From sequence record MT446420.1: 64,000 bases of DNA; one strand, 5' to 3'. A program made the translations under genes and the position numbers. Of the stretch, positions 15,201 through 50,939 are shown one piece after another. How positions within the stretch are numbered: the stretch's first letter is position 1; each line of letters begins with the position of its first letter. The notes under the pieces were generated by a model. That model did not search any database, was not told where the DNA came from, and was given only the letters and a program-made list of their open reading frames with translations. Origin of the DNA: Escherichia virus TH54.

Positions 15201-15845
15201 TATCCTACAGGTACTATTCCGGATATGCGTGGGCAGACTATCAAGGGTAAGCCAAGCGGTCGCGCAGTGTTGAGTGCAGAAGCTGATGGTATTAAGTCTC
15301 ATAACCATGGCGCATCTGCTTCAAGTACTGACTTGGGTACTAAAACCACATCAAGCTTCGACTATGGTACTAAAACATCTTCAAGCTTTGATTATGGTAC
15401 TAAGACCAGCAATACAACAGGTAACCATAACCATACAGTAAGTGGTACTACCAGTTCAGCCGGTGCTCACCAGCACGCTCGTTCAGGTCCGCAGCTTTCT
15501 AACGGTATATCTACTAATATTTTCCCTGATGGGTACAGTGATGTTGGAACCAACTACAACTCAAAATTTAGTGGAACAGTTATAGGTAGCTCGGTGCCGT
15601 GTATCATTGGTAAAACATCAAATGATGGTGCTCATACTCACACTTGGTCAGGTACTACTAGCACTACAGGTAACCATGCTCATACTGTAGGTATTGGTGC
15701 TCATACCCATACGGTAGGTATCGGTGCTCACACTCATACTGTAGCGATTGGTTCTCACGGACATACTATCACTGTAAATAATACAGGTAATACAGAAAAC
15801 ACGGTTAAAAACATCGCTTTTAACTATATCGTTCGCTTAGCATAA
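12225..15845 (+). CDS. 37: long tail fibre distal subunit gp37 (receptor-binding tip with His boxes)
   Basis: 1206 aa; C-terminal [29 protein letters not shown] x2/GSHGHTI HxH repeats typical of T4-type gp37 tip. Confidence 0.9.
15336..15404 (+). repeat. 30-bp tandem repeats inside gp37 (GTKT[TS]SSFDY units)
   Basis: ggtactaaaac...tcaagcttcgactat / ggtactaaaacatcttcaagctttgattat / ggtactaag... Confidence 0.8.
15690..15770 (+). repeat. 27-bp tandem repeats inside gp37 (GIGAHTHTV His-box units)
   Basis: Three successive 27-nt units encoding [27 protein letters not shown]. Confidence 0.75.
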
Positions 15846-20300: not shown

Positions 20301-20330
20301 ATTATGCATCGGGTCAAGGGACTTGTACAC
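20301..20330 (-). promoter_or_regulatory. early promoter cassette after the gp52-region terminator
   Basis: Minus-strand AAAAAGTAGTGTACAAGTCCCTTGACCCGATGCATAAT. Confidence 0.5.
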
Positions 20331-20349
20331 TACTTTTTAAAATAAAAAA

Positions 20350-20365
20350 GGACCCCGAAGGGCCC
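20350..20365 (-). terminator. intrinsic terminator downstream of 52
   Basis: Minus-strand GGGCCC-TTCG-GGGTCC then T-run. Confidence 0.5.
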
Positions 20366-20463
20366 TAGTCTTTATCTATCTTATTACCAATAAACATACC
20401 AACAATCACACCCGCGATTGCCGCGAAAATACAAAGCAATGCAAACTCAACTCCAAAACTCAT
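20365..20463 (-). CDS. hypothetical small membrane protein (32 aa)
   Basis: Hand-translated MSFGVEFALLCIFAAIAGVIVGMFIGNKIDKD; ATG overlaps gp52 stop (ATGA); terminator hairpin follows. Confidence 0.35.
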   Translation of the reverse strand: MSFGVEFALLCIFAAIAGVIVGMFIGNKIDKD

Positions 20464-22237: not shown

Positions 22238-22687
22238 TTAATAGCTCTGCAGAATGAATTTAAAGTTATCAGCAAGCATGCGATTCATTTCTGAAAGGGT
22301 CTGGCAATCAGAACTATGTGAGCGAGTGAACGCCATCGCAATTTGACCTTTACCATAACCAGTTGTCAAAGGTTTCATTTTAGAAACTGGAACAAACAGG
22401 ACTTCATAGATAACCCCATTGTTCGCCATTGTGCGAGACAGTTGAGAACGTTGTTTGCGGATGTGACTTAATACAGTGTCAAACCCTTGTTGCGAGCGTT
22501 GGTTACCAACATAAAAACGTGCGGCAACAATACGTGATTCGCCTTCACCTTTGACCATGAAATAAAAACCTGGTTGGGTGATAGCTTCTTTAGTCGGGCG
22601 ACCTGCAACATAATTACCATTATGGATGTAAGCAACAGTAGTAGCGCCAGCATTCAGTACGTCACGACGGGTCATATAAGTAGACAT
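22238..22687 (-). CDS. ndd: nucleoid disruption protein Ndd
   Basis: ...NAGAT...PGFYF.V......[28 protein letters not shown]...MKPLTTG.GKGQ.A.AFTR.H....[18 protein letters not shown] matches T4 Ndd. Confidence 0.9.
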
Positions 22688-22720
22688 ATTAATTTCCTCA
22701 GTAAGTTAAAGTTTTGTGCT

Positions 22721-22758
22721 CCAGTGGGGTCATTATACTCTGACCCCAAGAGTTTGTA
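22721..22758. repeat. 38-bp promoter/hairpin cassette, copy 1 (identical to 33493-33530)
   Basis: ccagtggggtcattatactctgaccccaagagtttgta; inverted repeat GGGGTCA/TGACCCC around a TATAAT. Confidence 0.9.
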
Positions 22759-22760
22759 TA

Positions 22761-23102
22761 CTATTTTTGAAGTTTTTCTAAAATAAATTCGGGGGTGTAA
22801 CAAGTAGCGTTATACACCTTATTCAGGTTTATCAAAGCATATCCATAGGTATTACGTAATTCTTTAATAACATTTTCATAGCTTACATAGTAAGCATTGC
22901 GATAGTCGGGGTCCATGCACATACGGAATTTAATAAATCTGTAAAAACCTGTATCAGGGTCCTGAACAAAAACAAAATCTGCGCTCATTACAGTTTTTAA
23001 ATGTAACCCTGGAATCTGCCCTTGATTACATAAAGCTGCATCTTGGAGACTAAGGTTCTTAAAGAACATAACATTGGCATTACCAAAAAATAATTTAGAC
23101 AT
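22761..23102 (-). CDS. hypothetical protein
   Basis: 113-aa ORF. Confidence 0.4.
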   Translation of the reverse strand: MSKLFFGNANVMFFKNLSLQDAALCNQGQIPGLHLKTVMSADFVFVQDPDTGFYRFIKFRMCMDPDYRNAYYVSYENVIKELRNTYGYALINLNKVYNATCYTPEFILEKLQK

Positions 23103-23117
23103 AATGATTTCCTCAAT

Positions 23118-23363
23118 TTATTCAGGGTCTACTGCGCCATCCCACAAGTCAACTTCTTCTGATGATTCCATCAGTTCATCAACTGTGAAGCACTCAGTAT
23201 TATTTTCAATTGCAAAGCGCTTCTGATAAAAAGGATAATCCAAACAGTTTTCAGTGCGTACGGGGCGCTCACTGTTATCCATTAAAGGCGAAATGCGAAT
23301 CAGTTGTTGACCATCACCCAGGACAAATTTTTCACCAACTGCAATGTCTTTAAAAAGTTTCAT
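23118..23363 (-). CDS. hypothetical protein
   Basis: 81-aa ORF. Confidence 0.4.
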   Translation of the reverse strand: MKLFKDIAVGEKFVLGDGQQLIRISPLMDNSERPVRTENCLDYPFYQKRFAIENNTECFTVDELMESSEEVDLWDGAVDPE

Positions 23364-23614
23364 TGCTTAGCTCCATTCCAAATTACATCAACAACAGACT
23401 TCAAACCATTATCCTGGATTTGTGTGAACACTTCAGCAGCAATCCAGAACTGGAAACCAATCATTGCAATGGCACCAATGAAAATCAGGATAATCATCGC
23501 CACAATAAACTTGAACATAAAGTCAAAGCGACGATTGGATTTCTGAAATTGTGAATTGTAATTCATAATATTATCCTCAAAAGAAATAGTTAAAGTAAAC
23601 GCGCACATGGTCAA
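23360..23614 (-). CDS. hypothetical membrane protein
   Basis: 84 aa, hydrophobic. Confidence 0.4.
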   Translation of the reverse strand: MTMCAFTLTISFEDNIMNYNSQFQKSNRRFDFMFKFIVAMIILIFIGAIAMIGFQFWIAAEVFTQIQDNGLKSVVDVIWNGAKQ

Positions 23615-23838
23615 TCATAAAAACAATTGGGAAAATGCTCAGGACAACAAACAGTACAAACATGTTCCAAATGGCTTTAAGTAACTTTTTCATAATCATC
23701 TCCAGTAGTTGATAGGTTCATTATACTACAACCACCGGAGATGTACACTCTTTTATGCAAGTTTCATTAATAATAAACTAAAACAAACGCAAATTACTGG
23801 GATACACAACATCCAGATAAGGCACCAGGTTTTGCTGC

Positions 23839-24105
23839 TCAAAATATCACCTCTTTGATTTCAATCAATCCTCTGTACAATGCGGTGCGAAGGTCATAAA
23901 GAATATCTATGCCATCAACATTATCCAGCTTGCCATCAATAAGCTTTTTCAAATCTTCCTTTGACGCAACTAGTGGGCGAAGAAATTTACAATCAGAAAG
24001 AGACAATTCTGTGGTAACATCATCACCATCACCTGACGCATCATACATAGCGGCAACAACCATACCTGTAATTTTGTGTTTGGCGTAGTATAATTTAATA
24101 TCCAT
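23839..24105 (-). CDS. hypothetical protein
   Basis: Track ORF 23839..24168; start re-set to ATG 24105 behind conserved leader ...CTGGAGAAACAAATG. Confidence 0.4.
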   Translation of the reverse strand: MDIKLYYAKHKITGMVVAAMYDASGDGDDVTTELSLSDCKFLRPLVASKEDLKKLIDGKLDNVDGIDILYDLRTALYRGLIEIKEVIF

Positions 24106-24138
24106 TTGTTTCTCCAGTTGGTAACTCAGTATGGAATC

Positions 24139-24168
24139 ATTATACATAGACGCCATACTGATGTACAC
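24139..24168 (-). promoter_or_regulatory. early promoter cassette
   Basis: Minus-strand AAAAAGTAGTGTACATCAGTATGGCGTCTATGTATAAT. Confidence 0.5.
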
Positions 24169-24178
24169 TACTTTTTAA

Positions 24179-24454
24179 TTAATTGTGCATTTGTTCTTTA
24201 ACTTCTTTGTATGCGCCAACTGCATTCACGACACCGGTAAAATCTGCTGTTCCACGATAGAGATAGAAAGCGATTTCAGTCAGGTGGTAGACTTCAAATT
24301 CTGAAAGATAAACGATAACGTCATAATATGCAACTTGACCCTGGACTTCGTTGAATACTACATCAAAAATTTCATGAGTTGGAAAATTGATGTTGTTGTT
24401 TTTGAGTGCTTGAATAAGAATTTGTTTGATGTTGTGAGTAGTAACTTGTTCCAT
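24179..24454 (-). CDS. hypothetical protein
   Basis: Track ORF 24179..24544; start re-set to ATG 24454 whose SD lies in a 9-bp hairpin. Confidence 0.4.
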   Translation of the reverse strand: MEQVTTHNIKQILIQALKNNNINFPTHEIFDVVFNEVQGQVAYYDVIVYLSEFEVYHLTEIAFYLYRGTADFTGVVNAVGAYKEVKEQMHN

Positions 24455-24457
24455 GAT

Positions 24458-24487
24458 AATGTCCTCATTTGTTGGTGTGAGGACATT
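24458..24487 (-). promoter_or_regulatory. SD-sequestering hairpin
   Basis: 9-bp stem ATGTCCTCA/TGAGGACAT with 10-nt loop; GAGGA SD of ORF 24179..24454 lies in the 3' arm. Confidence 0.45.
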
Positions 24488-24501
24488 ATTACATAGTTGG
24501 T

Positions 24502-25095
24502 TCAGCTTGTAAACCGGTGATAGGGAAATTTTTCTTCTGAACAAGAACGGAGGTACCAGCCATCCCCTTGTGACTTCTGCACAAGACCAGACTCAGGAAC
24601 AAAAGCCCCAGGCCCAGCAAGGAATTTTGGTTTAAATCTATAACCTTTGATAGTCTCTTTTACATTAAACATAATCATAAGGTCAGCAAGCTTGTGTTGC
24701 ATAAAAGGACCAAGATTAATCCCGTAACCATGTGGATAATCGCCATGACTACCAGTATGCACGGATATCCATTTGGAACCAGACTGGTGGGTCTTGACTT
24801 CGATTCTTACCCCTTCCTTCGAAACTACATCAAATGCAAAGGAATAGGGATTATCGTAATCTTCATCACCGCCGCATAAAAAGCCGGAGGTCCATTTAGC
24901 AATAGCTTGTTCTGCCATTGTAGCCACCATACATCTTTGCATGACTTGCTCACGGTCTTGACCTGGGTCTTTACGCAATGAATACCTGGCTGTGTCTACA
25001 ATCTTTTGCAGGGATTCAGGGGTTAAATCTTCTTTTGTATAAAGAAAGGAGGGCATCTTTTTCAGATGCTCCCATGTTTTACTCTTCTGAATCAT
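24502..25095 (-). CDS. hypothetical protein (denB-equivalent position, identity not established)
   Basis: 197-aa ORF between ndd cluster and rIIB. Confidence 0.4.
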   Translation of the reverse strand: MIQKSKTWEHLKKMPSFLYTKEDLTPESLQKIVDTARYSLRKDPGQDREQVMQRCMVATMAEQAIAKWTSGFLCGGDEDYDNPYSFAFDVVSKEGVRIEVKTHQSGSKWISVHTGSHGDYPHGYGINLGPFMQHKLADLMIMFNVKETIKGYRFKPKFLAGPGAFVPESGLVQKSQGDGWYLRSCSEEKFPYHRFTS

Positions 25096-25348
25096 CTTTT
25101 ACCTCATCGATGCCGACGATTCCCCGGATATGAAGCTCGCCATAGTACAAACGGTCATTAGCATCAAATGTATCAGAATCCGGGTCAGGGAATTCCCCAA
25201 CAACTACTTCATCACATTCCAACCAGCCATAGTGAACATCACCTTCATGCTTGATGAGCTTACCACAGTAAACTATTCCTGCGTAATGGTGACCCCGGAG
25301 ATTTGAAACTTTGATGTCACGGTCTGACACATTGAAATGCTTAATCAT
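25079..25348 (-). CDS. hypothetical protein
   Basis: 89-aa ORF. Confidence 0.35.
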   Translation of the reverse strand: MIKHFNVSDRDIKVSNLRGHHYAGIVYCGKLIKHEGDVHYGWLECDEVVVGEFPDPDSDTFDANDRLYYGELHIRGIVGIDEVKDDSEE

Positions 25349-25351
25349 AAT

Positions 25352-25561
25352 TTATTCACCAAAATAAGAGATACGAATTGCCAGTACATGAGCATAAGCG
25401 CTCATTGCATCTAACTGGGCATTCAAAAGACCTTGCTGACGAGCATCGAGAGTTTCAAAAACTCCACCCTTAATAAACTCTTCAAGAGCATTAATTTTCA
25501 AAACCAGCTGGTCATATTCTTCAACTACACGTGCTTGGAAACCTAACATTTCTTTAGACAT
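25352..25561 (-). CDS. hypothetical protein
   Basis: 69-aa ORF. Confidence 0.35.
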   Translation of the reverse strand: MSKEMLGFQARVVEEYDQLVLKINALEEFIKGGVFETLDARQQGLLNAQLDAMSAYAHVLAIRISYFGE

Positions 25562-26045
25562 TGTGTTCTTCCATATATTTTAATCGAGCTTCATTTGCTT
25601 CTTCTGGAGTTGCAAAAGCTCCGACTTGAATTTGTTTTTTATTTCGCATAATAGTGGCTCGCCATGGTTTATTCAAAGCTCGTTTATCAAACGAGACTCC
25701 TTTAAATCCAGACTTGTTGTTATTATACGGGCGCTTATTTAAAGCATTCTCGCCTGGACTAACCCATCTGCAGTTATCGGGAGAGTACCCTTTATCGTTA
25801 TCTGTTCGGTCAAGTTGATGTTTGTCAGTGGGTCGTGGCCCCATATCTGTATAAAATCTTTCAAAATCATGCAGCCATTCATCGCAAACAGTGATACCCC
25901 GACCGCCATATCGAGAATAACTAATATGTGTTGGATTGCAACACCGAGCTTTCATGCCAATCCATACAATGTATTCAGGCGTGTGACCTAGCCCGTGGAC
26001 AATACCACGAGCCGAGCCATCTTTAGCAATTGTTTGTTTAATCAT
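25554..26045 (-). CDS. putative HNH homing endonuclease with C-terminal AP2-like DNA-binding domain
   Basis: 163 aa; HQLDRTDNDKGYSPDNCRWVSPGENALN (H-N-N pattern) plus GFKGVSFDKRA..KPWRATI...VGAFATPEEANEARLKY (AP2-like); ATG lies inside the rIIB stop region. Confidence 0.55.
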   Translation of the reverse strand: MIKQTIAKDGSARGIVHGLGHTPEYIVWIGMKARCCNPTHISYSRYGGRGITVCDEWLHDFERFYTDMGPRPTDKHQLDRTDNDKGYSPDNCRWVSPGENALNKRPYNNNKSGFKGVSFDKRALNKPWRATIMRNKKQIQVGAFATPEEANEARLKYMEEHNV

Positions 26046-27018
26046 TGAAACGTTCGGTCACATCTTCAAGAACCAGGTAACCGCAAACCCTCATCTTACT
26101 ATCGGAATAATCCACCGGGATACTTACAACATCGCGCGGGTGAACTTTACATGATACGATGCGCCCATCACCATGACCAAAACCGCTTCCGATATAGCCT
26201 TTAGAGCAAACATGTAACCCGGTTGAACAGGTCTGTTCGTCATTGTCATTCACACGAGAGCGTGGCATTTTAACATATTGGCCAGGGCTGTTGTCGAATG
26301 TGTTTGAGTGACAATCTTTGTAGGTTGAACGAACCATTTTCCATGCGATGAAATAACCGTCTTCGGTGATTTCGATATCGTTCGCAACCAGGAAGTCAAA
26401 CAAACGCTGTACAGCTTTCTCACTCGGGTTCTCAAGGAGATTCTCGAGGAATGGCAGATAGAATTCAAAGTCTTCGCCATTTTGCATTGAATCAATGATA
26501 CGAGTAACCAGGCCAGAGCGCAGTTCAATTCCCTGATAGAACAGGCTACCACCTTCAATACGCACATCGCCTTTCACATATTTTTGTACTGCAGCTTTGA
26601 TTGAGATAAACTCGATAGCATCATCAAAACGAGATTCAATCAATGCCTGAATAATATCATTAAAGTGTTTATGGTCTTTTGTTGCGTTCCAGACCGTACG
26701 ACCTTCGGTGATGGAAACGAATTTGCTTGATGCATTCCATACGATTTCCGGGCGGCTTCCGCCAATTGTATCTTCAACAACCGGGACTTCAACCGTTACT
26801 GTCACCGGAGCATTAATCGCCACACCAACAGCTGCTTTCAGTGATGCAGAAATGGTTTTAGATAATTTTGATTCTTTATCATTTTTCAAAACACGGCGAA
26901 TGGTGTCAACCGATACACCGAAATTATCTGCTAGTTCCTGTTGGGTATAATTACCAGTTTTATAAAGAGAAACTACCTGGTTTTGGTCAAATTTGGATAA
27001 AGCTTTAATATTAAACAT
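26038..27018 (-). CDS. rIIB: rIIB membrane-associated protein
   Basis: GNYTQQELAD..GVSVDTIRRVLKN...GDVRIEGGSLFYQ.IELRSGLV.RI.DSM..GE.FEFY.PFLENLLENPS.KAV.RLFDFLVANDIEITEDGYF collinear with T4 rIIB. Confidence 0.95.
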   Translation of the reverse strand: MFNIKALSKFDQNQVVSLYKTGNYTQQELADNFGVSVDTIRRVLKNDKESKLSKTISASLKAAVGVAINAPVTVTVEVPVVEDTIGGSRPEIVWNASSKFVSITEGRTVWNATKDHKHFNDIIQALIESRFDDAIEFISIKAAVQKYVKGDVRIEGGSLFYQGIELRSGLVTRIIDSMQNGEDFEFYLPFLENLLENPSEKAVQRLFDFLVANDIEITEDGYFIAWKMVRSTYKDCHSNTFDNSPGQYVKMPRSRVNDNDEQTCSTGLHVCSKGYIGSGFGHGDGRIVSCKVHPRDVVSIPVDYSDSKMRVCGYLVLEDVTERFND

Positions 27019-27019
27019 A

Positions 27020-29254
27020 TTATTCCTTATTGGCCGCTTCCACGGCCTTCATGATTTGAGCAACGTTCTGTACTTGTTCAGTTGACATGGCGTTACGGTT
27101 ATATAAAAAGTGTGAAACAATCGGGTGATTCTTTTCAAATTCAAAAACCATTTTATCGCTTGTTACCGAAGCGTTTTTGGTCAGGTCGTCATAAATCTTA
27201 TTACAAAGGACCAGAGTTTCCTGCATGGTCTTATCAACTGTTCCACTGTTATATGCATTATAAGCAAAGAACTTATTGAACTGCATTAGTTCAGCATAGT
27301 CAGTGTTCACATCTTTCTGAACATCTTTTGCATAAAAATACTTGAACATAAAATTCAATTCTGCATATTCAGACAGGATAGGAATATAATAACGCGAACG
27401 GCTTGAAGCGGCAATGTACTGGTCCGCATCAACTGAATCAATCAATTCCACATAACGATTGACTGCAGCTTCAATCAGACAATCACACTGCGCCAGCTTG
27501 GTAACCTTTTTCTGAAGCTGCGGGCGAATAACACAGAATTCATTGATTTCCAACAGGTTTGCCAGTTTGCACAATGTCTGGGTCCCGAAGTTCGTGACGC
27601 CATAATCCTGATTCAACGGGGAAATGCTGCTGCGGTTAATGAATACAGCATAACCATCGATTTCCTCTGCATCAGCTGCACACGTAAATTCTTCAACAGC
27701 CTGCCAGCGACCATTGGTTTTAGTCCAACGAATCACCGATGGAGTCTTTGACTTAACACGCTCTTTCGGGTCCGCAACCGGAATCCAGTCTTTTACAAGG
27801 GCGGTCAGTTCAGACGTACGATAGATATTAACTGTATCGCCTTTAAATCGTTCTTGAAGTTGAACCATCAGACGTGTTTGAATTTCGCTGGTTGGGTCAA
27901 CGAACAATAGACTACTACCTTGTACAGTCGGAACTTTACCAGATGCTTTGAGCTTTTTGGCTTTCGCGCTGGTGTCATACAGCATTGAACTGATACCACG
28001 AATCATCGCAATTCGCCCTTTAGCATCGTCAATAACAATATTCAAGGTATCATTATGAATACCAAACATGCTTGTCAGGCTTGCAGTATTCGTGTTCGAG
28101 CTTGAGTTACGCAGACGTTTCAGACGGGTAGTGCTATAGATATCATAGACAACCCCGGCATTAATAAGGTCTTTGTCCAGCTCGAACATTTCGTACATCT
28201 GGTTAAAAGTCAATTGTGATTTTGTAAATTTCGTTTCAGCATTACGAGCTTTCAGAAAATTACGAGCTTCATAACTCAGACTCTGCAATTCGCGATACGT
28301 ATGGCGGATACATTCTGATTCCTGCCATTTCTTACAATCATCTTCCATGACCTTCTTATCAAGCGATTCAATACGTTCAACGATATTTGCGACCGTACGT
28401 TTGTCCAGTGATAATGCTTCGCGAGAAGGTGCAATATCCAACGAACCCATCGGGAACTTAATAAAGACAACATCATTTTTGGCAGTCATCCAGGTTTTCT
28501 TTGTATAACCGTCACCAATCGGATAAACAATACCGCCGTAAATTGCATAAAGTCCATAACGTTCTGGGCTGCTATAATCAATACGCGCTGGAGCATAATA
28601 ATCATCAAATTCTGGGAAGTAATTAATTTCGCCTACGCCTTGCACTTCAGCCAGTCCAGCAAATGGACGCATGATATACGCAATCTCGTAGCGGAACTTA
28701 CCAAAATCATTACTATCAACCGGGACAACAACTTCAATCCCTGTGCGGTCACCAGGTTTCATTGGTTCGCTAAAGGTTGGCTTAATCTGTGGACCATCGC
28801 CATCCATATAAGCGACATAACCGTTAACTTGACCATCATGATATGAAATCAGGCTAAACGTCTCGGTATAACTGAACGGAGATTTAGAACCCAGGCCAAA
28901 GCCACCAATAAAATCGTTGGATTCAGCCTTGGATGATGCAAAGAAACTGTTATACAGACCTGGAGTATTTTCATCACCACGAATCTGGAAATCACTCATA
29001 CCCGGACCAAAGTCACGACATACAAAACGTGGGTCCAGTTCACCAGGAGCTTGCACAATGAATTTATCCTGACAACCATTGAGCATATGAGCATCAATCA
29101 TATTGGTAATCAGCTCACGAACAACCGCGCGCACCTTGTTTGTATAAAGGTCGCTGGTCAGAATCTTAAACACCTTTGGAGATGCCTGGATTGTGAATGC
29201 TGATGCCTTGGCACCATTACCAAGGATTGTTTCCTTTTCAGTTTCTAAAATCAT
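27020..29254 (-). CDS. rIIA: rIIA protein
   Basis: 744 aa; N-terminal ATPase-like ...VRELITNMIDAH...GGFGLGSKSPFSY; size and position as T4 rIIA. Confidence 0.9.
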   Translation of the reverse strand: MILETEKETILGNGAKASAFTIQASPKVFKILTSDLYTNKVRAVVRELITNMIDAHMLNGCQDKFIVQAPGELDPRFVCRDFGPGMSDFQIRGDENTPGLYNSFFASSKAESNDFIGGFGLGSKSPFSYTETFSLISYHDGQVNGYVAYMDGDGPQIKPTFSEPMKPGDRTGIEVVVPVDSNDFGKFRYEIAYIMRPFAGLAEVQGVGEINYFPEFDDYYAPARIDYSSPERYGLYAIYGGIVYPIGDGYTKKTWMTAKNDVVFIKFPMGSLDIAPSREALSLDKRTVANIVERIESLDKKVMEDDCKKWQESECIRHTYRELQSLSYEARNFLKARNAETKFTKSQLTFNQMYEMFELDKDLINAGVVYDIYSTTRLKRLRNSSSNTNTASLTSMFGIHNDTLNIVIDDAKGRIAMIRGISSMLYDTSAKAKKLKASGKVPTVQGSSLLFVDPTSEIQTRLMVQLQERFKGDTVNIYRTSELTALVKDWIPVADPKERVKSKTPSVIRWTKTNGRWQAVEEFTCAADAEEIDGYAVFINRSSISPLNQDYGVTNFGTQTLCKLANLLEINEFCVIRPQLQKKVTKLAQCDCLIEAAVNRYVELIDSVDADQYIAASSRSRYYIPILSEYAELNFMFKYFYAKDVQKDVNTDYAELMQFNKFFAYNAYNSGTVDKTMQETLVLCNKIYDDLTKNASVTSDKMVFEFEKNHPIVSHFLYNRNAMSTEQVQNVAQIMKAVEAANKE

Positions 29255-29261
29255 GTTTTTC

Positions 29262-29471
29262 TCACTTTATGTTACGTTTGATTAATTCTGCAACTTCAAG
29301 AAGTTCATCCTTTGTTGCGGCGTCTGAAGCTATTTTAATACGGATTTCTTTGAAGCGTTCTTTAAACTCTTCAGCTTCTCTTATATCAAAAAATCGTTGG
29401 ATAACACGGTACTCTTTATGGATAGCCTTATCAAACAGTTCCATATTAACTTTGAAGTTCGTCATTTCCAA
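29262..29471 (-). CDS. hypothetical protein (rIIA.1 position)
   Basis: 69-aa ORF. Confidence 0.4.
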   Translation of the reverse strand: MEMTNFKVNMELFDKAIHKEYRVIQRFFDIREAEEFKERFKEIRIKIASDAATKDELLEVAELIKRNIK

Positions 29472-29730
29472 TCTCCTGTAATATTTTTCTCATACTACGC
29501 ATGGTAGCTTTATGTTCTTGGTCATGGTATATCAATGCAAGGAGTGCTTCAATTCGCTCCTCAGGGACCTTCTGGCCAGCCTTAATGCTCATGGCTGTTG
29601 TTCTTACAGCTAACAAGTAACTTCGCTTCCTGTCGTTATCTGGGAGCCCCTGCACCTTCCTTAGACCTGCTTCCATAATACACCGTGCAACATTTTGCAG
29701 ATTAACTAAACTTCCGTCAGACATAATCAT
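29446..29730 (-). CDS. hypothetical protein
   Basis: 94-aa ORF. Confidence 0.4.
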   Translation of the reverse strand: MIMSDGSLVNLQNVARCIMEAGLRKVQGLPDNDRKRSYLLAVRTTAMSIKAGQKVPEERIEALLALIYHDQEHKATMRSMRKILQEIGNDELQS

Positions 29731-29784
29731 ATTTTCACCTCAAAGACATCTTAACACAATTTTTGTGGCTTGTACATAATAAAA

Positions 29785-29802
29785 AGGTCTCCCGAAGGAG
29801 AC
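29785..29802 (-). terminator. intrinsic terminator
   Basis: Minus-strand GGTCTCC-TTCG-GGAGACC then TTTTT. Confidence 0.55.
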
Positions 29803-29808
29803 CAAATT

Positions 29809-29997
29809 TTATTCTACTTTATAGACTTGACCATACGCCATGAAAGTTTCACCTTCCCAGGTTTCGCACGTGATTGTTACAAATTCTGCAAACAAAGGTT
29901 TTTTCTCTGCCCAGAGAAAACCATATTCACCGGTAGCGAGTGTAATCCAGTATTTAGTCATATTGTCTCCTAGTAGCGGGAGAATATTCTCCCACAT
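29809..29997 (-). CDS. hypothetical protein
   Basis: 62-aa ORF followed by terminator hairpin. Confidence 0.35.
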   Translation of the reverse strand: MWENILPLLGDNMTKYWITLATGEYGFLWAEKKPLFAEFVTITCETWEGETFMAYGQVYKVE

Positions 29998-30001
29998 CTA
30001 T

Positions 30002-31834
30002 TTATAGCGTCGCATTCATCCAATCTTTACGCTGTTGGGAATCTTTACCGAATAGCATTTCGAACAGTTCTTTCCAGTTGTCGGGCAATTGAACAACTTC
30101 GAATACCGGCTCGAGCAATACGCGTTTGTACTCGGAATCTTCCAGAGAGCCAAGCCCCTTGATATATCGGATGGTGTGCTTCGGAAGTTTATCCTTAGCT
30201 TCTTCATAATCAGGAAGAGAATAGAACCATTCTTGTTTATCTTTGAGCTGCGCAATAATAACAGGAGTTTTCACAAAGCGAATTCGTCCTTCATGGAACA
30301 GCTCTGGCCAGTTACTGAAAAACGCCAATAACGATGGATAGATACTACCGACACCATCCACATCCGCATCTGTCATGATAGCAATGTTTCGGTAATTCAT
30401 ATTCTCGGCCGGTTGTCCAATCGTTAATCCAGTAATTGCACACACATCAAAGGCTTCAGCGTTCTTCATAACGTCAATAGCTTTCAGGCCCCATGTGTTT
30501 TTAAACTTGCCCCGTAATGGATAAGCACCCTGCAATTCACGGTCGCGAACCTTGATAAATGGGCCAGTTGCAGAATCCCCTTCGGTCAGGAATAGAGTCG
30601 TTTCCAACTTATCATTGCCCCATTCGTTGGCCTTGATATGCTTTTGTACCTTGGCCTTTGAAGCTTTCTTATTTGCCTTAGTCTCTGCTGCTTTCTCTGC
30701 AGCCAATTTACGGGCTAATGCAGCTTCAACAATCGGCATAATCAGCGGTTCATTTTTCAGAATAGCTTGCGCGATTTTCTTAGCATCAATCTTAATGTGA
30801 TTTCGGATTTCACCAGCCGGAGAAGTCAATCGCTCCTTGGTTTGGGAATCAAATCGCATGTTGCTCATATCGCGGATGAACATAAGCATGGTGAGACATT
30901 CTTTAACTCGTGCCTTGGTCACCTCAATGCCTTTATATTTGCGCTTAATCGCCGGCTGAAGGTGTTCACAGATATCATCCATAACACATTCAACGTGGTG
31001 TCCGCCATTCTTTGTATGAATGTTGTTGACATAAGTCAACTGACGGAAACCGTCTGGGCTGGTCGTAAAGGCCATCGATACTGTATCAGTTTCCTGGATA
31101 ACAACTTCGGTTCCGAATTGCTTGGAGAACTTCTTGAAGTTGCCATCAACCTTTTTACCATTAAAGGTGAACTGAATATCCGGATAAACAACAGCAAGAG
31201 TCTGCAGACGGTCCAATGTAATATCCAGATAAATCTGGGACAGACTATTTTCTTCAAAGTGACTAAAATCTGGAATAAATATAACAGTCGTACCTTTACC
31301 CTTTGATTTCTTAGTCGACCAACATTTGTTTTCCATACCGTTGGAGCAGTTAACAGTAATTTCGTTCGCCCCATCAGCGGTAATCCCGGTGAACAATACG
31401 GAGAAAATATTGGTCAGAGAAGACCCGACGCCATTCATCCCGCCAGTTTTACGTTCAGCATCATCGCCGAAGTTGCCACCTGCTTTTGGAATAGTCCATG
31501 CTGCAACAGGGCCAGGGATTTGTTCACCGTTTTGGTCTGTAACCATTGCCTGTGGAATACCACGGCCATTATCAGAAACCGAAATCTGATTATCTTTAAT
31601 TTGGACATCAATTTTATTGGCAAATTTAAAACTGGTGCGAATTGCTTCATCAACAGAGTTATCAATAATTTCATCAATCAGTTTTACAATACCAGGAACA
31701 TAGCTTACGGACTTATATTCACCAAACAAGAATCGCTCATGCGCTTCATTTGAACTGGAACCAATATACATCCCGGAACGTTTTTTGATATGCTCGACGT
31801 CCGAGAGTACTTTAATTTCATTATTAATCATCAT
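30002..31834 (-). CDS. 39: topoisomerase II large subunit, uninterrupted gp39+gp60-type ORF
   Basis: 610 aa; N-terminal GHKL ATPase (MINNEIK.LSD.EHIKKRSGMYIGS), C-terminal TOPRIM-like part in one frame. Confidence 0.9.
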   Translation of the reverse strand: MMINNEIKVLSDVEHIKKRSGMYIGSSSNEAHERFLFGEYKSVSYVPGIVKLIDEIIDNSVDEAIRTSFKFANKIDVQIKDNQISVSDNGRGIPQAMVTDQNGEQIPGPVAAWTIPKAGGNFGDDAERKTGGMNGVGSSLTNIFSVLFTGITADGANEITVNCSNGMENKCWSTKKSKGKGTTVIFIPDFSHFEENSLSQIYLDITLDRLQTLAVVYPDIQFTFNGKKVDGNFKKFSKQFGTEVVIQETDTVSMAFTTSPDGFRQLTYVNNIHTKNGGHHVECVMDDICEHLQPAIKRKYKGIEVTKARVKECLTMLMFIRDMSNMRFDSQTKERLTSPAGEIRNHIKIDAKKIAQAILKNEPLIMPIVEAALARKLAAEKAAETKANKKASKAKVQKHIKANEWGNDKLETTLFLTEGDSATGPFIKVRDRELQGAYPLRGKFKNTWGLKAIDVMKNAEAFDVCAITGLTIGQPAENMNYRNIAIMTDADVDGVGSIYPSLLAFFSNWPELFHEGRIRFVKTPVIIAQLKDKQEWFYSLPDYEEAKDKLPKHTIRYIKGLGSLEDSEYKRVLLEPVFEVVQLPDNWKELFEMLFGKDSQQRKDWMNATL

Positions 31835-31856
31835 CTTTCCTCTTGTGTATGGAGGT

Positions 31857-31884
31857 ATTATAAGTCACATATTTTAAAGCAAAA
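31857..31884 (-). promoter_or_regulatory. candidate MotA-dependent middle promoter for gene 39
   Basis: Minus-strand TTTGCTTTA, 12-nt spacer, TATAAT, just after a terminator hairpin. Confidence 0.45.
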
Positions 31885-31898
31885 AGGCCCGAAGGCCT
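31881..31898 (-). terminator. intrinsic terminator after lipoprotein gene
   Basis: Minus-strand AGGCC-TTCG-GGCCT then TTTTTG. Confidence 0.5.
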
Positions 31899-32158
31899 TA
31901 TTCAAATCGGATGGTTGAATTCTTGAACAACAATCCAGAACAAACAGTTCCTTCAACTTTCTTACCAGTTGGACCCACTGCTGTAAAACCAGTATGCTGG
32001 AAATCATCTTTAGAGCATCCAAACCAGTTATATCCAGTGATTTGGATTTGCTCAAAACCATTGGCATTCAAAACCTTAGTAGCATTATCTGCATCAGTAC
32101 AACCGGCCAATGAAACAGCCAAAACCAGCGCGGCAATAGAACGATTAATATATTTCAT
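31898..32158 (-). CDS. putative lipoprotein
   Basis: 86 aa; signal peptide with lipobox LAGC (MKYINRSIAALVLAVSLAGC). Confidence 0.5.
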   Translation of the reverse strand: MKYINRSIAALVLAVSLAGCTDADNATKVLNANGFEQIQITGYNWFGCSKDDFQHTGFTAVGPTGKKVEGTVCSGLLFKNSTIRFE

Positions 32159-32164
32159 ATTTCC

Positions 32165-32338
32165 TCATTTAAGCAGGTCGTAAAACCCACCATTAACATG
32201 TTTAGGGGCTGAAACTAACCGAACAGCCAGCCGATGACAATCAGGACAAACATCATTATCTCTTTCAGAGATTTTCTTGATTTTTTCGTATTCTTTTGCG
32301 CAGTCTTCAGATTGGCATTTGTAATCATAAAGTGGCAT
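32165..32338 (-). CDS. small zinc-ribbon protein (57 aa)
   Basis: Hand-translated MPLYDYKCQSEDCAKEYEKIKKISERDNDVCPDCH...; two CxxC pairs; below track cutoff. Confidence 0.45.
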   Translation of the reverse strand: MPLYDYKCQSEDCAKEYEKIKKISERDNDVCPDCHRLAVRLVSAPKHVNGGFYDLLK

Positions 32339-32345
32339 CTCTAAA

Positions 32346-32705
32346 TTATTCCTTAAAGTGTGCTTTCAACATCTGGAAAACTGACCAGGCTTCTTCATTA
32401 TTACTAATGGTGATTTTAGTCAATGGGAATGCAGTGATTTCTGGAGCTTCAGTTTCTTCATCGCCGTCATCTTTTTCTTCTTCAAAGAAACGGAATTCAT
32501 CTTCCTTTATGAATAGGCTCACAAATTCACCAGTTGATAATTCCATTTTACACACATCACCATCTTCAATTCTGACTGGTCTAAATCCCTCGCCATTGAT
32601 TATAGCATTGGCTATATTATCATTATCTGTGCATAACAAACGGAATCTGCTTTCAGCAACATTATCTTTAAAATAATACCACTTATCAGTTTCAAATTTA
32701 GACAT
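32346..32705 (-). CDS. hypothetical protein
   Basis: Track ORF 32346..32828; start re-set to ATG 32705 (GGAAGGAGA SD). Confidence 0.4.
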   Translation of the reverse strand: MSKFETDKWYYFKDNVAESRFRLLCTDNDNIANAIINGEGFRPVRIEDGDVCKMELSTGEFVSLFIKEDEFRFFEEEKDDGDEETEAPEITAFPLTKITISNNEEAWSVFQMLKAHFKE

Positions 32706-32922
32706 TATAAATCTCCTTCCAAAAATCTGTACCATCTTCTGATTCTTCACGGAACAACGCATAGCTAGGTAGTTCTGCGTCTTTGTCTGCATACACATAA
32801 ATGATATCAGTGGTGCAAAGAAATTCATTGATGTTTTTCTTCACAATCACTTTATCACTTTCAGCAGTATCCCAAAACTCTTCAGCAGTCAGGGAAGTGG
32901 TCACACAATCTTCATTAAACAT
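32698..32922 (-). CDS. hypothetical protein
   Basis: 74-aa ORF. Confidence 0.35.
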   Translation of the reverse strand: MFNEDCVTTSLTAEEFWDTAESDKVIVKKNINEFLCTTDIIYVYADKDAELPSYALFREESEDGTDFWKEIYNV

Positions 32923-32969
32923 AATATTCTCCTCATTGATAGGGCAAATTACCCTATCATTTTTATAAT

Positions 32970-33461
32970 TTAGGCAAAATGAATATCAGCATACTCGACA
33001 ATAAAGCTCTCAGGAACAACCTTAAAGGTTCCAAGGAACACGATATTATACAGTTTGACACCTTCTTCAACCCATTGGTCTGTGATATAACCAGACATGC
33101 TAGTGGTTTCATAAGTCGGACCATACTGACAATTATATTCAAACGGTTTAGGTGAAACAAAAAAGACACCTTTGCCCAATTTCCATTTAAAATCAACCCC
33201 AATATGAGACTGGTCAATGGTTTCAACGTCTTCAGCCACAGGAGCGATGTACCCAGTAAATTCGGTTGATTCCAGGAATTTAGGATGTACATAAGCCAAT
33301 TGAGTTTCAGTCTGGCCATGTTTAGGAATAATACGCACTTTAACTTCTTTAATTCCACCTACTAAATTAGTGCGAAGACTCACAACCTCAACAAAACGAC
33401 CAGCAGCTTTGGAACGAGATTCTTTAGAAACACGTACAATATCACCAGCTTCAACTTTCAT
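32970..33461 (-). CDS. hypothetical protein, paralog of 33540..34295 C-terminus
   Basis: 163 aa; C-terminal YITDQWVEEGVKLYNIVFLGTFKVVPESFIVE aligns with GWVTDQWIEDGVELLNVVHAGEFTVVPRFMVVE. Confidence 0.45.
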   Translation of the reverse strand: MKVEAGDIVRVSKESRSKAAGRFVEVVSLRTNLVGGIKEVKVRIIPKHGQTETQLAYVHPKFLESTEFTGYIAPVAEDVETIDQSHIGVDFKWKLGKGVFFVSPKPFEYNCQYGPTYETTSMSGYITDQWVEEGVKLYNIVFLGTFKVVPESFIVEYADIHFA

Positions 33462-33492
33462 AATTTTCTCTCTTGGTTAATAAGTTTATTCT

Positions 33493-33530
33493 CCAGTGGG
33501 GTCATTATACTCTGACCCCAAGAGTTTGTA
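33493..33530. repeat. 38-bp promoter/hairpin cassette, copy 2
   Basis: Identical 38-mer to 22721-22758. Confidence 0.9.
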
Positions 33531-33539
33531 CACTTAAAT

Positions 33540-34295
33540 TTAATTAAAAATTTCAACAACCATGAAACGTGGTACAACAGTAAATTCACCAGCATGAACA
33601 ACGTTCAGGAGTTCAACACCATCTTCAATCCACTGGTCTGTTACCCAACCACAAATAGAACTGTTAAATGGGCGTTTGATTTGAACTGGTTTACACAACA
33701 AGTCAATAGGGTCACCCAGTTCGCTAACTTCTTTCAGCAGTACAGATTCGCGCGGATAAAGGATAGCTTCAAGATTGTCACCTGATTCATTAATTGCAGT
33801 AAATTCAAAGATGCTTTGGTGATTGTGGTACTTAACTGTTTTAACGGTAAATGGAGCAAATCCAAAAATACCTTTCAGTACCCGCCAACCAGCATGCATT
33901 GCGACAGTCTTTCCAAATTGACTATCATCTTCAATAAGCTGGTAGGTTTTACCAACTTTGATAGGAGTTTCTTCAACTTCTTTGAAGAGTTCAATCTCAG
34001 CTTCATAAACCATAATTTTTTCTACTTCATTAGTATCAAGGCGACGTGCATGCAGAATATATGCTTTATCAAACCAGTTACTTTTTACAAAAGTTTCAAC
34101 AATAAATTCGCCTTCACCTAAAGCATCAGTCAGAGTATTATACCCAGAAACCATAGCTGCGTTTTGAATAATAGGTTCAATCAGTTGATAAGTTTTGTTA
34201 ATTTCAATAGTCATATTTTGTTTCTCAAGTTTTAATGGTTTAATTGGGCGAACATACATACTTACAACATCAAAGTCAATAAATTCTGGTTTCAT
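33540..34295 (-). CDS. hypothetical protein, paralog family
   Basis: 251 aa; shares C-terminal domain with 32970..33461. Confidence 0.45.
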   Translation of the reverse strand: MKPEFIDFDVVSMYVRPIKPLKLEKQNMTIEINKTYQLIEPIIQNAAMVSGYNTLTDALGEGEFIVETFVKSNWFDKAYILHARRLDTNEVEKIMVYEAEIELFKEVEETPIKVGKTYQLIEDDSQFGKTVAMHAGWRVLKGIFGFAPFTVKTVKYHNHQSIFEFTAINESGDNLEAILYPRESVLLKEVSELGDPIDLLCKPVQIKRPFNSSICGWVTDQWIEDGVELLNVVHAGEFTVVPRFMVVEIFN

Positions 34296-34619: not shown

Positions 34620-35303
34620 TTATCGTTTTTTCGGTAAAGATAACGGGTCTGCATCTTCTTCGGAAGGAACTTCATCTAAACCAAGAGCATAGCGTTGGGC
34701 ATACTTAAGCATCAAAATATCTTTCGCGCAGTCATGCACCGAATCATGCGCCACAAATCCATCTAAAGTCCCCTTCGGTAATGGAGTTTCACACATCTTA
34801 CGGACGAGTGACAAGGCTTCGATTGCTGTCCTGATATCTCGCTGGTTCCAGAATACAACCGGTTCCAGACCGTAGGTATTCAATTCACGCTCAGGGATAC
34901 CCTCATTGCGTTGCAGGTCGCGGATAAGGTCAACAAACAACGGGAAGTCAAAGGACATTCCACGACACCACATAAGACTTTCGTATTTGTTAATTCCATT
35001 ACCATTCAGATAATCAATTGCCTGTTGGATACCGGTCAGAGTATCAACATCTTGTGCAGAAGGAGCCAAGTTAACACGGGCTTCCGCTGATTGTTTTTTC
35101 CACCAACCCATGGTTGTTGTGTCGAACAACCGCTTACCTTTTTGGTATTCGAGACTGAACTTAATACGTTTGCCGCGATTAACCAGGGTTTCGAATGATT
35201 CCACAATAGCAGGGTCAGATTCGAATGTAATCAGAGCCAGGTCAATAACGGCTCCCTTCGAGCCGTTTCCCAGAGTTTCAAAATCAATAATAGCATCAAT
35301 CAT
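34620..35303 (-). CDS. dexA: exonuclease A (DEDD family)
   Basis: 227 aa (same as T4 DexA); MIDAIIDFETLG... N-terminus; position upstream of dda. Confidence 0.8.
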   Translation of the reverse strand: MIDAIIDFETLGNGSKGAVIDLALITFESDPAIVESFETLVNRGKRIKFSLEYQKGKRLFDTTTMGWWKKQSAEARVNLAPSAQDVDTLTGIQQAIDYLNGNGINKYESLMWCRGMSFDFPLFVDLIRDLQRNEGIPERELNTYGLEPVVFWNQRDIRTAIEALSLVRKMCETPLPKGTLDGFVAHDSVHDCAKDILMLKYAQRYALGLDEVPSEEDADPLSLPKKR

Positions 35304-35380
35304 CGCACATCTCTTTTAATTTTTGAATTTCACCAGCAACCATCGCACATCTCTTTTAATTTCTGAATTTCACCAGCAAC
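35301..35380. repeat. 40-bp tandem direct duplication (2 copies, 1 mismatch) at the dexA start
   Basis: 35301-35340 and 35341-35380 both read catcgcacatctcttttaattt(t/c)tgaatttcaccagcaac. Confidence 0.95.
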
Positions 35381-50870: not shown

Positions 50871-50939
50871 TTTAATATCCTTAAGTTATTCATCAGTTGA
50901 TGGAGTAATCATACGGCAGTCCTTTGCCGTTGTAAACAC

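Follow-up and report, generated by a model that had tools for sequence, protein, structure and literature searches.

A probable promoter early stem-loop cassette repeated upstream of ndd and motB in the T4-like coliphage TH54

Promoter early stem-loops and the repeated element of TH54

Promoter early stem-loops (PeSLs) were defined in the phages RB49 and phi1, where about 50 of them occur per genome (Arbiol et al., 2010; PMC2839356). As described there, PeSLs are intergenic and consist of an A/T-rich region and a sigma-70 promoter, followed by the Shine-Dalgarno (SD) sequence and the ATG of the next gene; the stem is generally of the form GGGG...CCCC and is mostly found in the space separating the -35 box from the -10, or overlaps the -10. 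Reporter assays with RB49 and phi1 PeSLs revealed strong promoter activity, while one stem-loop reduced the expression of a downstream lacZ, and PeSLs can recombine into mini-circles (PMC2839356). The class was extended to T4/PST and KVP40/nt-1, with TTTACW-N17-TAYWAT as the T4-group consensus, and degraded "half" PeSLs (a stem without the -10) were described, and PeSL-flanked exchanges in the ndd.4/ndd.5 region were discussed (Comeau et al., 2014; PMC4122927). The 64,000 nucleotides of Escherichia virus TH54 analysed here (MT446420.1; this whole stretch is called the window) are from a T4-like coliphage of the genus Gaprivervirus and contain, upstream of both ndd and motB, a repeated element in which a hairpin surrounds the -10 box of an early promoter. 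By its sequence features the element is a Gaprivervirus member of the PeSL class, having every sequence-level property of that class, and we consider it probable that it is a composite cassette of this type, that is, a strong sigma-70 early promoter of the host RNA polymerase superimposed on a stem-loop.

The 38-mer CCAGTGGGGTCATTATACTCTGACCCCAAGAGTTTGTA was found, exactly as the first-pass annotation had reported, at 22721-22758 (site 1) and 33493-33530 (site 2), 10.8 kb apart. The flanks add 2 nt to the identity, which covers 40 nt (22719-22758 and 33491-33530). None of 100 dinucleotide shuffles contained a match to the 38-mer. The two sites form a repeat family (D4) with 94% identity over 50 nt, joined at 62% by 63358-63407, and the pattern GGGGTCA-N8-TGACCCC is present in exactly three copies in the window (22726, 33498, and 63371) against 0.04 expected. 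A chance origin was rejected on these values, the expected numbers being 0 matches of the 38-mer and 0.04 of the stem pattern. The third copy of the stem, noted previously at 63371, was confirmed and spans 63370-63393 (site 3). The 7-bp inverted repeat GGGGTCA/TGACCCC of the first description is indeed present, but the perfect stem is longer, with 8 bp at sites 1 and 2 (TGGGGTCA/TGACCCCA) and 9 bp at site 3 (CGGGGTCAT/ATGACCCCG).

The early genes of the window, and the hairpin elements of sites 1 to 3 and of the fourth member described below, are on the minus strand. The record closest to the window is TH57 (96%), and VR7, VR20, VR25, VR26, and SP18 are approximately 86-89% identical around site 1. 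Site 1 is located between the TAG stop codon (22761-22763) of an open reading frame (ORF) at 22761-23102 and ndd, which encodes the nucleoid disruption protein (22238-22687; phrog_1102, E 8e-60; ATG at 22685-22687). Site 2 lies between the ORF at 33540-34295, with its TAA stop at 33540-33542, and motB, encoding a MotB-like DNA-binding early protein (32970-33461; phrog_1671, E 2.5e-67). The two genes flanking site 2 had been called paralogous, which holds only for a 38-aa C-terminal domain that they have in common (50% identity, E 1e-11). Site 3 is placed between the TAA stop of the ORF at 63401-63598 and a homologue of T4 55.2 (63002-63328).

Analysis of the minus strand supported the earlier assignment of a promoter with its -10 inside the inverted repeat and revealed that this promoter is of the sigma-70 early type. 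Site 1 reads aaaaaTAG-TATACA-aactct-TGGGGTCA-gag-TATAA-TGACCCCA-ctGGAGcacaaaac...GAGGAAattaatATG, and site 2 has the same layout except for TGTACA as the -35 and GGAGaataaac. The -35 hexamer TATACA of site 1 (22755-22760) directly abuts the TAG stop codon and is separated by a 17-nt spacer from the -10 hexamer TATAAT (22732-22737), of which five bases are in the loop and the last T opens the 3' arm; at site 2, TGTACA (33527-33532) and TATAAT (33504-33509) have the same spacing. In a consensus scan both promoters matched 10 of the 12 positions of TTGACA/TATAAT; their -35 boxes match five of the six positions of TTTACW. Site 3 has an extended -10, TGgTATAAT (TATAAT at 63377-63382), and no recognisable -35, the letters at that place being AATAAA. 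Upstream, the A/T-rich stretch aaaaacttcaaaaa precedes the TAG stop at site 1, while at site 2 the TAA stop is found 7 nt before the -35, inside gaaatttttaattaaattt; downstream, an SD sequence and an ATG follow within 36-38 nt at both sites. A MotA-dependent middle promoter was rejected on sequence, with no TGCTT box at -30, and so was a late promoter, with no TATAAATA.

Relative to these boxes, the 5' arm of the hairpin occupies the spacer (approximately -23 to -16; 22741-22748 at site 1) and the 3' arm forms the discriminator (-7 to +1). When +1 was placed by standard spacing, about 7 nt past the -10, the predicted transcription start was the A that ends the 3' arm, at 22725 for site 1 and at 33497 for site 2.

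The hairpin of site 1 (22725-22748) has an 8-nt loop, GAGTATAA, and a minimum free energy (MFE) of -18.3 kcal/mol (z -4.5), and that of site 2 (33497-33520) is the same; the z-score of the core hairpin ranged from -4.0 to -4.5. In folds of 101 nt of minus-strand RNA (-22 to -23 kcal/mol, z -2.6 to -3.0) the 8-bp stem is extended by a lower stem, CUCU/GGAG, so that the whole structure of site 1 covers about 22716-22752. At site 3 (63370-63393) the 9-bp stem closes a 6-nt loop around TGgTATAAT. A diverged fourth member was found at 1987-2023, upstream of the ORF at 1709-1957, with TGTACA as the -35 (2018-2023), CATAAT as the -10 (1995-2000), and a stem ATGGGGCTAT/ATGGTCCCAT around it (1987-2012; MFE -15.2, z -4.2); its stem region reads TGGGGCTA...TGGTCCCA.

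No U-rich tract was detected 3' of the stem at any of sites 1 to 3, where the sequences that follow are ACUGGAGCAC, ACUGGAGAAU, and GGGAUAAUAA, and a terminator scan of the window did not list the element on either strand. A canonical (Rho-independent) terminator was rejected, as the G+C-rich hairpin is present but the U tract is absent and the scan did not return it. The same scan found canonical terminators with UUCG loops near the element, at 29786-29803, 20349-20366, and 31884-31899. The element resembles intrinsic terminators, those of T4-like phages with UUCG-tetraloop hairpins among them, in being a stable G+C-rich hairpin behind a stop codon at a unit boundary, and differs from them in the missing U tract, in the 8-nt loop that carries the -10, and in escaping the terminator scan. 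The search of the whole window against Rfam 15 at the gathering threshold gave no matches.

Comparison with the described PeSLs showed a close agreement. Sites 1 and 2 have -35 and -10 boxes at a spacing of about 17 nt, with TGn and TATAAT alone at site 3; the stems are of 8-9 bp, with a helix backed by covariation; at sites 1 and 2 the element is intergenic, with the stop codon in an A/T-rich stretch and the SD and start codon following; and the window holds three close copies and one diverged copy. With the RB49 and phi1 PeSLs, as described in PMC2839356, the element has in common the A/T-rich upstream region, the sigma-70-type -35/N17/-10, the stem over the -10, the many copies, and possibly the link to homologous exchange in which those PeSLs are implicated. 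It differs in that RB49 and phi1 are Krischviruses with a -35 of TTGACA, whereas the Gaprivervirus element has the T4-like -35 TGTACA, TATACA, or TTTACA, in that its copies precede conserved named genes (ndd, motB, and 55.2) and not ORFans, and in the absence of a U tract. In relation to the T4/PST PeSLs, the element fits TTTACW-N17-TAYWAT with one mismatch, and the T4 ndd stem resembles a half PeSL (PMC4122927). The T4/PST stems are described as lying just upstream of the promoter and as being more A/T-rich (AGNA...TCNT), while the present element has a G+C-rich stem that surrounds the -10, like that of RB49. The text of PMC4122927 does not mention motB or 55.2, and the passages of PMC2839356 and PMC4122927 that were consulted make no mention of stem covariation or strand bias.

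Conservation, covariation, and exchange of the cassettes

The 40-mer is 100% identical in approximately 29 Gaprivervirus genomes, although the flanks are only about 86% identical, and it occurs at three to four places per genome. In four genera, cassettes occupy syntenic positions ahead of ndd, motB, and 55.2. Tequatrovirus (T4), Dhakavirus, and Kanagawavirus have the same frame upstream of motB or of ndd, with stems of other sequence in which the changes compensate each other. Upstream of T4 motB the sequence is TTTACA-aactct-TGGGACCA-gag-TATAA-TGGTCCCG-tGGAGtataaaa, with the stem GGGACCA/TGGTCCC. In Dhakaviruses of the JS98 group the stem upstream of motB is GAGAGCCA/TGGCTCTC and that upstream of ndd is GAGAATCA/TGGTTCTC; the three homologous sites of this group carry three different stems. 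In the Kanagawaviruses PEi20, CIP9, and KLB31 the ndd cassette has the stem GAGGACA/TGTCCTC. When T4 was scanned loosely for hairpin promoters, the results were usable for motB, motB.2, and nrdC.4/5, the rest being too noisy.

These stems were compared in a gap-free alignment (A2) of 16 distinct sequences, from which the T4-like ndd hairpins, misaligned by MAFFT, were left out and treated separately. Standard pairs were found in 97.7% of the stem cells, compared to 80.6% in shuffles, and six of the eight pairs had changed on both sides, in 31 cells, a count that overstates the number of independent events because the sequences are related and partly paralogous. The covariation score was 0.69 against 0.32 in shuffles, and none of 500 shuffles reached this value; in slid registers at most 46% of the cells paired, and RNAalifold independently predicted the same helix. 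Read on the gene strand, the alignment contained 13 G:U cells and no A:C cell, and the three unpaired cells were U:C or U:U; at least eight separate wobble occurrences could be distinguished by eye, and TH57 has one further G:T. When the opposite strand was read, pairing fell from 97.7% to 87.5%. This bias towards G:U without A:C on the gene strand argues for selection on a single strand and not on a duplex palindrome bound by a protein, and the hairpin has most likely been selected as the sense single strand, in all likelihood as RNA.

The hairpins upstream of ndd in T4 and its relatives are in agreement with this. They read GGCCGTG-tgtattca-TGCGGCC-ttGGAG, with a 7-bp stem, an 8-nt loop, the GGAG, and two wobble pairs, and the -10 has decayed. 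In one T4 relative the whole hairpin is inverted (GGCCGC-atgaatac-GCGGCC versus GGCCGC-gtattcat-GCGGCC). Because the -10 of the T4-type ndd hairpin has decayed and one hairpin is inverted, the stem is kept without the promoter and without constraint on the loop sequence. The two orientations are those seen upstream of ndd in T4-like viral contigs (543-562), the inversion being visible only in the loop.

Within Gaprivervirus the ndd copy is invariant, while the motB copy is polymorphic. The motB copy has the stem GGGGCCA/TGGTCCC in VR7, VR25, VR26, TH15, and PSD2001, a form with one G:T wobble that is intermediate towards the T4 form, and the ndd-type stem in the window, VR20, SP18, and about 14 others. 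Within the 40-mer, identical apart from this, three differences change together, for which a short stretch exchanged between the two sites, or an imported variant cassette, seems the simplest explanation. The motB copy varies in the genus and the ndd copy does not, which fits an exchange between the two sites, and homologous exchange (gene conversion) of paralogous cassettes with each other, added to purifying selection, would best account for the identity of the ndd and motB copies. Of the two origins considered in the first-pass annotation, recent copying or strong selection, both find support in the invariance of the 40-mer and the polymorphism at motB, but the idea of a recent copying event confined to this genome was rejected, given that the 40-mer is invariant in about 29 genomes and that both sites are ancient and syntenic across genera.

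Traces of exchange were also found beyond the window. In VR26 (NC_028957, approximately 167606-167681; 15700-15775 of the stretch examined) an extra cassette, TGGGAGCA/TGTTCCCG, is present that is absent from the window, and a VR7-gp283-like gene before ndd is flanked by two related cassettes; this is the arrangement that has been proposed to excise as a PeSL mini-circle. The JS98 55.2 promoter (795-835 of the EF469154 stretch) is identical to the T4 motB promoter (7176-7215 of the T4 stretch) over approximately 38 nt (TAGTTTACAAACTCTTGGGACCAGAGTATAATGGTCCC), and the cassettes of JS98's own motB and ndd have other stems than its 55.2 cassette, which suggests a cassette transfer between sites or genera.

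Role of the hairpin and alternative explanations

In the composite cassette that we favour, the arms of the hairpin would be encoded in positions that the promoter leaves free (the spacer from -23 to -16 and the discriminator from -7 to +1), and the loop, as the free position of the hairpin, would hold the -10 box. With the predicted +1 at the final base of the 3' arm, RNA from the embedded promoter would begin there and be without the hairpin, and the whole hairpin would therefore be contained only in read-through RNA of the upstream unit, where it is located 15-20 nt past the last stop codon. We infer that its most likely role there is to mark the 3' boundary of the upstream mRNA and to protect it, as a barrier to 3' exonucleases and/or as a weak attenuator that insulates the embedded promoter. 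The mapped 3' ends of T4 early transcripts have been described as ends of stable RNAs and not as termination sites (work on T4 cited in PMC6024815), which would favour a role in protection or as a boundary over efficient termination. No mapped start sites or 3' ends of T4 motB or ndd were found in the literature searched.

The first-pass annotation had proposed that the hairpin acts as an RNA processing or stability signal. A role in stability or at the 3' end is plausible for the upstream read-through RNA, but not for the RNA made from the promoter itself. For the latter, it could be argued that 5' hairpins stabilise bacterial mRNAs and that the stem is very stable, at about -15 to -18 kcal/mol. 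Nevertheless, with the -10 at 22732-22737, the 5' arm at 22741-22748 (approximately -23 to -16) is upstream of any plausible start, and a transcript starting at the predicted +1, the end of the 3' arm, would begin with ACUGGAG and be unable to form the hairpin, which makes a 5' processing or stability signal highly improbable. A function of the opposite (+) strand, as a terminator or stabiliser of antisense or late transcripts running against the early genes, is also very unlikely. The + strand RNA folds as well (-20.2 kcal/mol, z -2.4), and its extended stem is followed by the moderately T-rich TTTGTATACTATTTTTG; on that strand, however, each wobble becomes an A:C mismatch, with the fall in pairing given above, the lower stem contains a C:A mismatch, the terminator scan did not list it, and conservation of the T-rich tail does not extend to site 2.

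Two further explanations place the function in the DNA. The repeat could be a palindromic operator, bound over the -10 by a dimeric DNA-binding protein of phage or host that turns off some of the early promoters, and as such it could contribute to early-promoter shut-off, of which reviews say that the understanding is incomplete (PMC3014915). The -10 forms the centre of the repeat, three promoters of this genome have the half-sites GGGGTCA/TGACCCC at an identical 8-nt spacing, and symmetric double changes between genera would be expected if operator and protein co-evolve. A duplex operator, however, gives no cause for 13 G:U against no A:C on the gene strand, nor for the additional G:T of TH57; moreover, the JS98 group has three stems at its three sites, in the other hairpin promoters of the window the stems are unrelated and the loops differ in length, and the hairpin of T4 ndd is retained without a promoter and is inverted in one relative. 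We therefore regard an operator as quite unlikely. The cassette could also be mainly a recombination element, whose hairpin or cruciform together with 40-50 bp of homology drives its own spread and the shuffling of genes, with no function in RNA. This would account for the exact 40 bp at sites 10.8 kb apart, the polymorphic motB copy, the extra copy of VR26, the near-identical cassettes at different loci across genera (T4 motB and JS98 55.2), and the T4-like phage with the whole hairpin inverted, and it recalls the reported PeSL mini-circles (PMC2839356). On the other hand, the cassettes keep the same syntenic places (ndd, motB, and 55.2) across four genera, the compensatory and wobble changes of the stem with their sense-strand bias point to selection on a transcribed single strand, and the mosaicism around motB shows no break at the cassette. 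We also know of no dedicated recombinase, and consider a purely DNA-level element unlikely.

Several points weigh against the composite promoter and boundary hairpin as well. Its start site was placed from the -10 spacing alone, and the published terminator test concerned a different PeSL. With no U tract and no entry in the terminator scan, efficient intrinsic termination would be unlikely. GGGGTCA/TGACCCC is common to all three focal stems, a pattern also compatible with a reader that recognises the sequence, and the covariation was counted in sequences of partly common descent. As for the exchange between cassettes, the identity profiles around motB (window versus VR20, VR25, and VR26) are mosaic, but without a break at the cassette.

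Directly past the 3' arm, the cassette carries a motif that resembles the site of the phage endoribonuclease RegB, for which the consensus GG*AGRAYARAA has been given (Durand, 2006; reviewed in PMC3014915). The motif GGAG(A/C/T)A(T/C)AAA was found at 22716-22722 (ACTGGAG of site 1, +2 to +7/+8 of the predicted transcript) and 33488-33494 in the window and at about 7165-7175 of the T4 stretch, and 10 of the 11 positions of GGAGRAYARAA are matched by GGAGCACAAAA (site 1), by GGAGAATAAAC, which follows the hairpin of site 2, and by GGAGTATAAAA upstream of T4 motB. As in RegB sites, the near-consensus motif is in the leader of an early gene; it differs in being at +4 to +7 of the predicted ndd and motB transcripts, in not being the functional SD (the real SD of ndd, GAGGAA, and its ATG are approximately 25 nt beyond ACTGGAG), and in its pairing with CUCU in read-through RNA. 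Folding predicted that it is unpaired in RNA started at the promoter. The motif is kept in the Dhakavirus motB leader, where the lower stem is absent, and is not found at site 3, which has GGAU instead; other promoters of the window read ...actactGGAGaataaaATG. The GGAG motif may be a RegB site, or a vestigial SD, from a cassette that had earlier been fused directly to a start codon.

An elaboration that we hold to be improbable, and put forward as speculation, combines these features in a two-state RNA device. The hairpin would cap the upstream mRNA, in which CUCU:GGAG pairing hides the near-consensus RegB site, whereas in promoter-started RNA the unpaired GGAG(A/U)AUAAA at +4 to +7 could be cut by RegB, clipping off the 5' triphosphate. 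If this were true, the RNA would be exposed to RNase E/G after phosphorylation by T4 polynucleotide kinase, giving a short, built-in expression window to ndd and motB, the products of which have been called toxic or host-directed, and promoter, boundary hairpin, and mRNA timer would be a single co-evolving module of 45 nt.

Other early promoters and significance of the cassettes

In the window, 17 recognisable intergenic promoters of the early type were found. A stable hairpin across the spacer, -10, and discriminator (z <= -2.6) was present in eight, marginal in one, and absent from the remaining eight. The hairpin promoters are the three focal sites and those with the -35 at 50936, 45470, 24167, 2745, and 2023, the last being the diverged fourth member; their stems differ in sequence and loop length. 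Some of the promoters without a hairpin directly follow a canonical terminator, e.g., the one at 20349-20366 before the -35 at 20329. The promoter cassettes belong to several repeat families (D1, D3, D6, D7, and D4). According to the first-pass annotation, its proposal would fail if the element were a general feature of every early promoter of the lineage, with no RNA ends associated; the first part of this turned out to be half the case, with a comparably stable hairpin in 8 of the 17 promoters and an arrangement that is already published as PeSL.

The unrelated hairpins at four of these promoters (45410-45470, 50900-50936, 24131-24187, and 2691-2745) have the stems GGGATAAT/ATTATCCC; ACGGCA/TGCCGT; CAGTATGG/CCATACTG; and GGGTCTAT.../ATAGACC, and several of the four have a common leader, ...ATCAACTACTGGAG or ...CATACTGAGTTA. 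Among the other repeats of the window, those at 7999-8764 and 15679-15766 are internal to long tail-fibre genes of the + strand and look like ordinary tail-fibre modules, with 98-nt units at 63-71% identity and three units at a spacing of 27 nt that encode His-x-His-type motifs. A tandem duplication of 40 nt (93%) is present at 35294-35373, and a 45-nt repeat (93%) at 44313-44357 and 44674-44718, 361 nt apart, is located where neighbouring small ORFs begin.

This finding leaves the present view of early transcription in T4 as it is, and adds an example of tight signal packing in T4-like phages, with a promoter and an RNA hairpin within the same 35 nt, each using the unconstrained positions of the other. 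To the described class it adds covariation and strand-bias evidence that a PeSL-type stem is selected as a single strand, probably as RNA, which suggests that such a stem is not merely a recombination motif or a protein site. It further adds three syntenic sites, upstream of ndd, motB, and 55.2, that appear to exchange sequence within and between genera, and the cassettes at these sites would be convenient and well-defined test cases for the functions that have been proposed for PeSLs.

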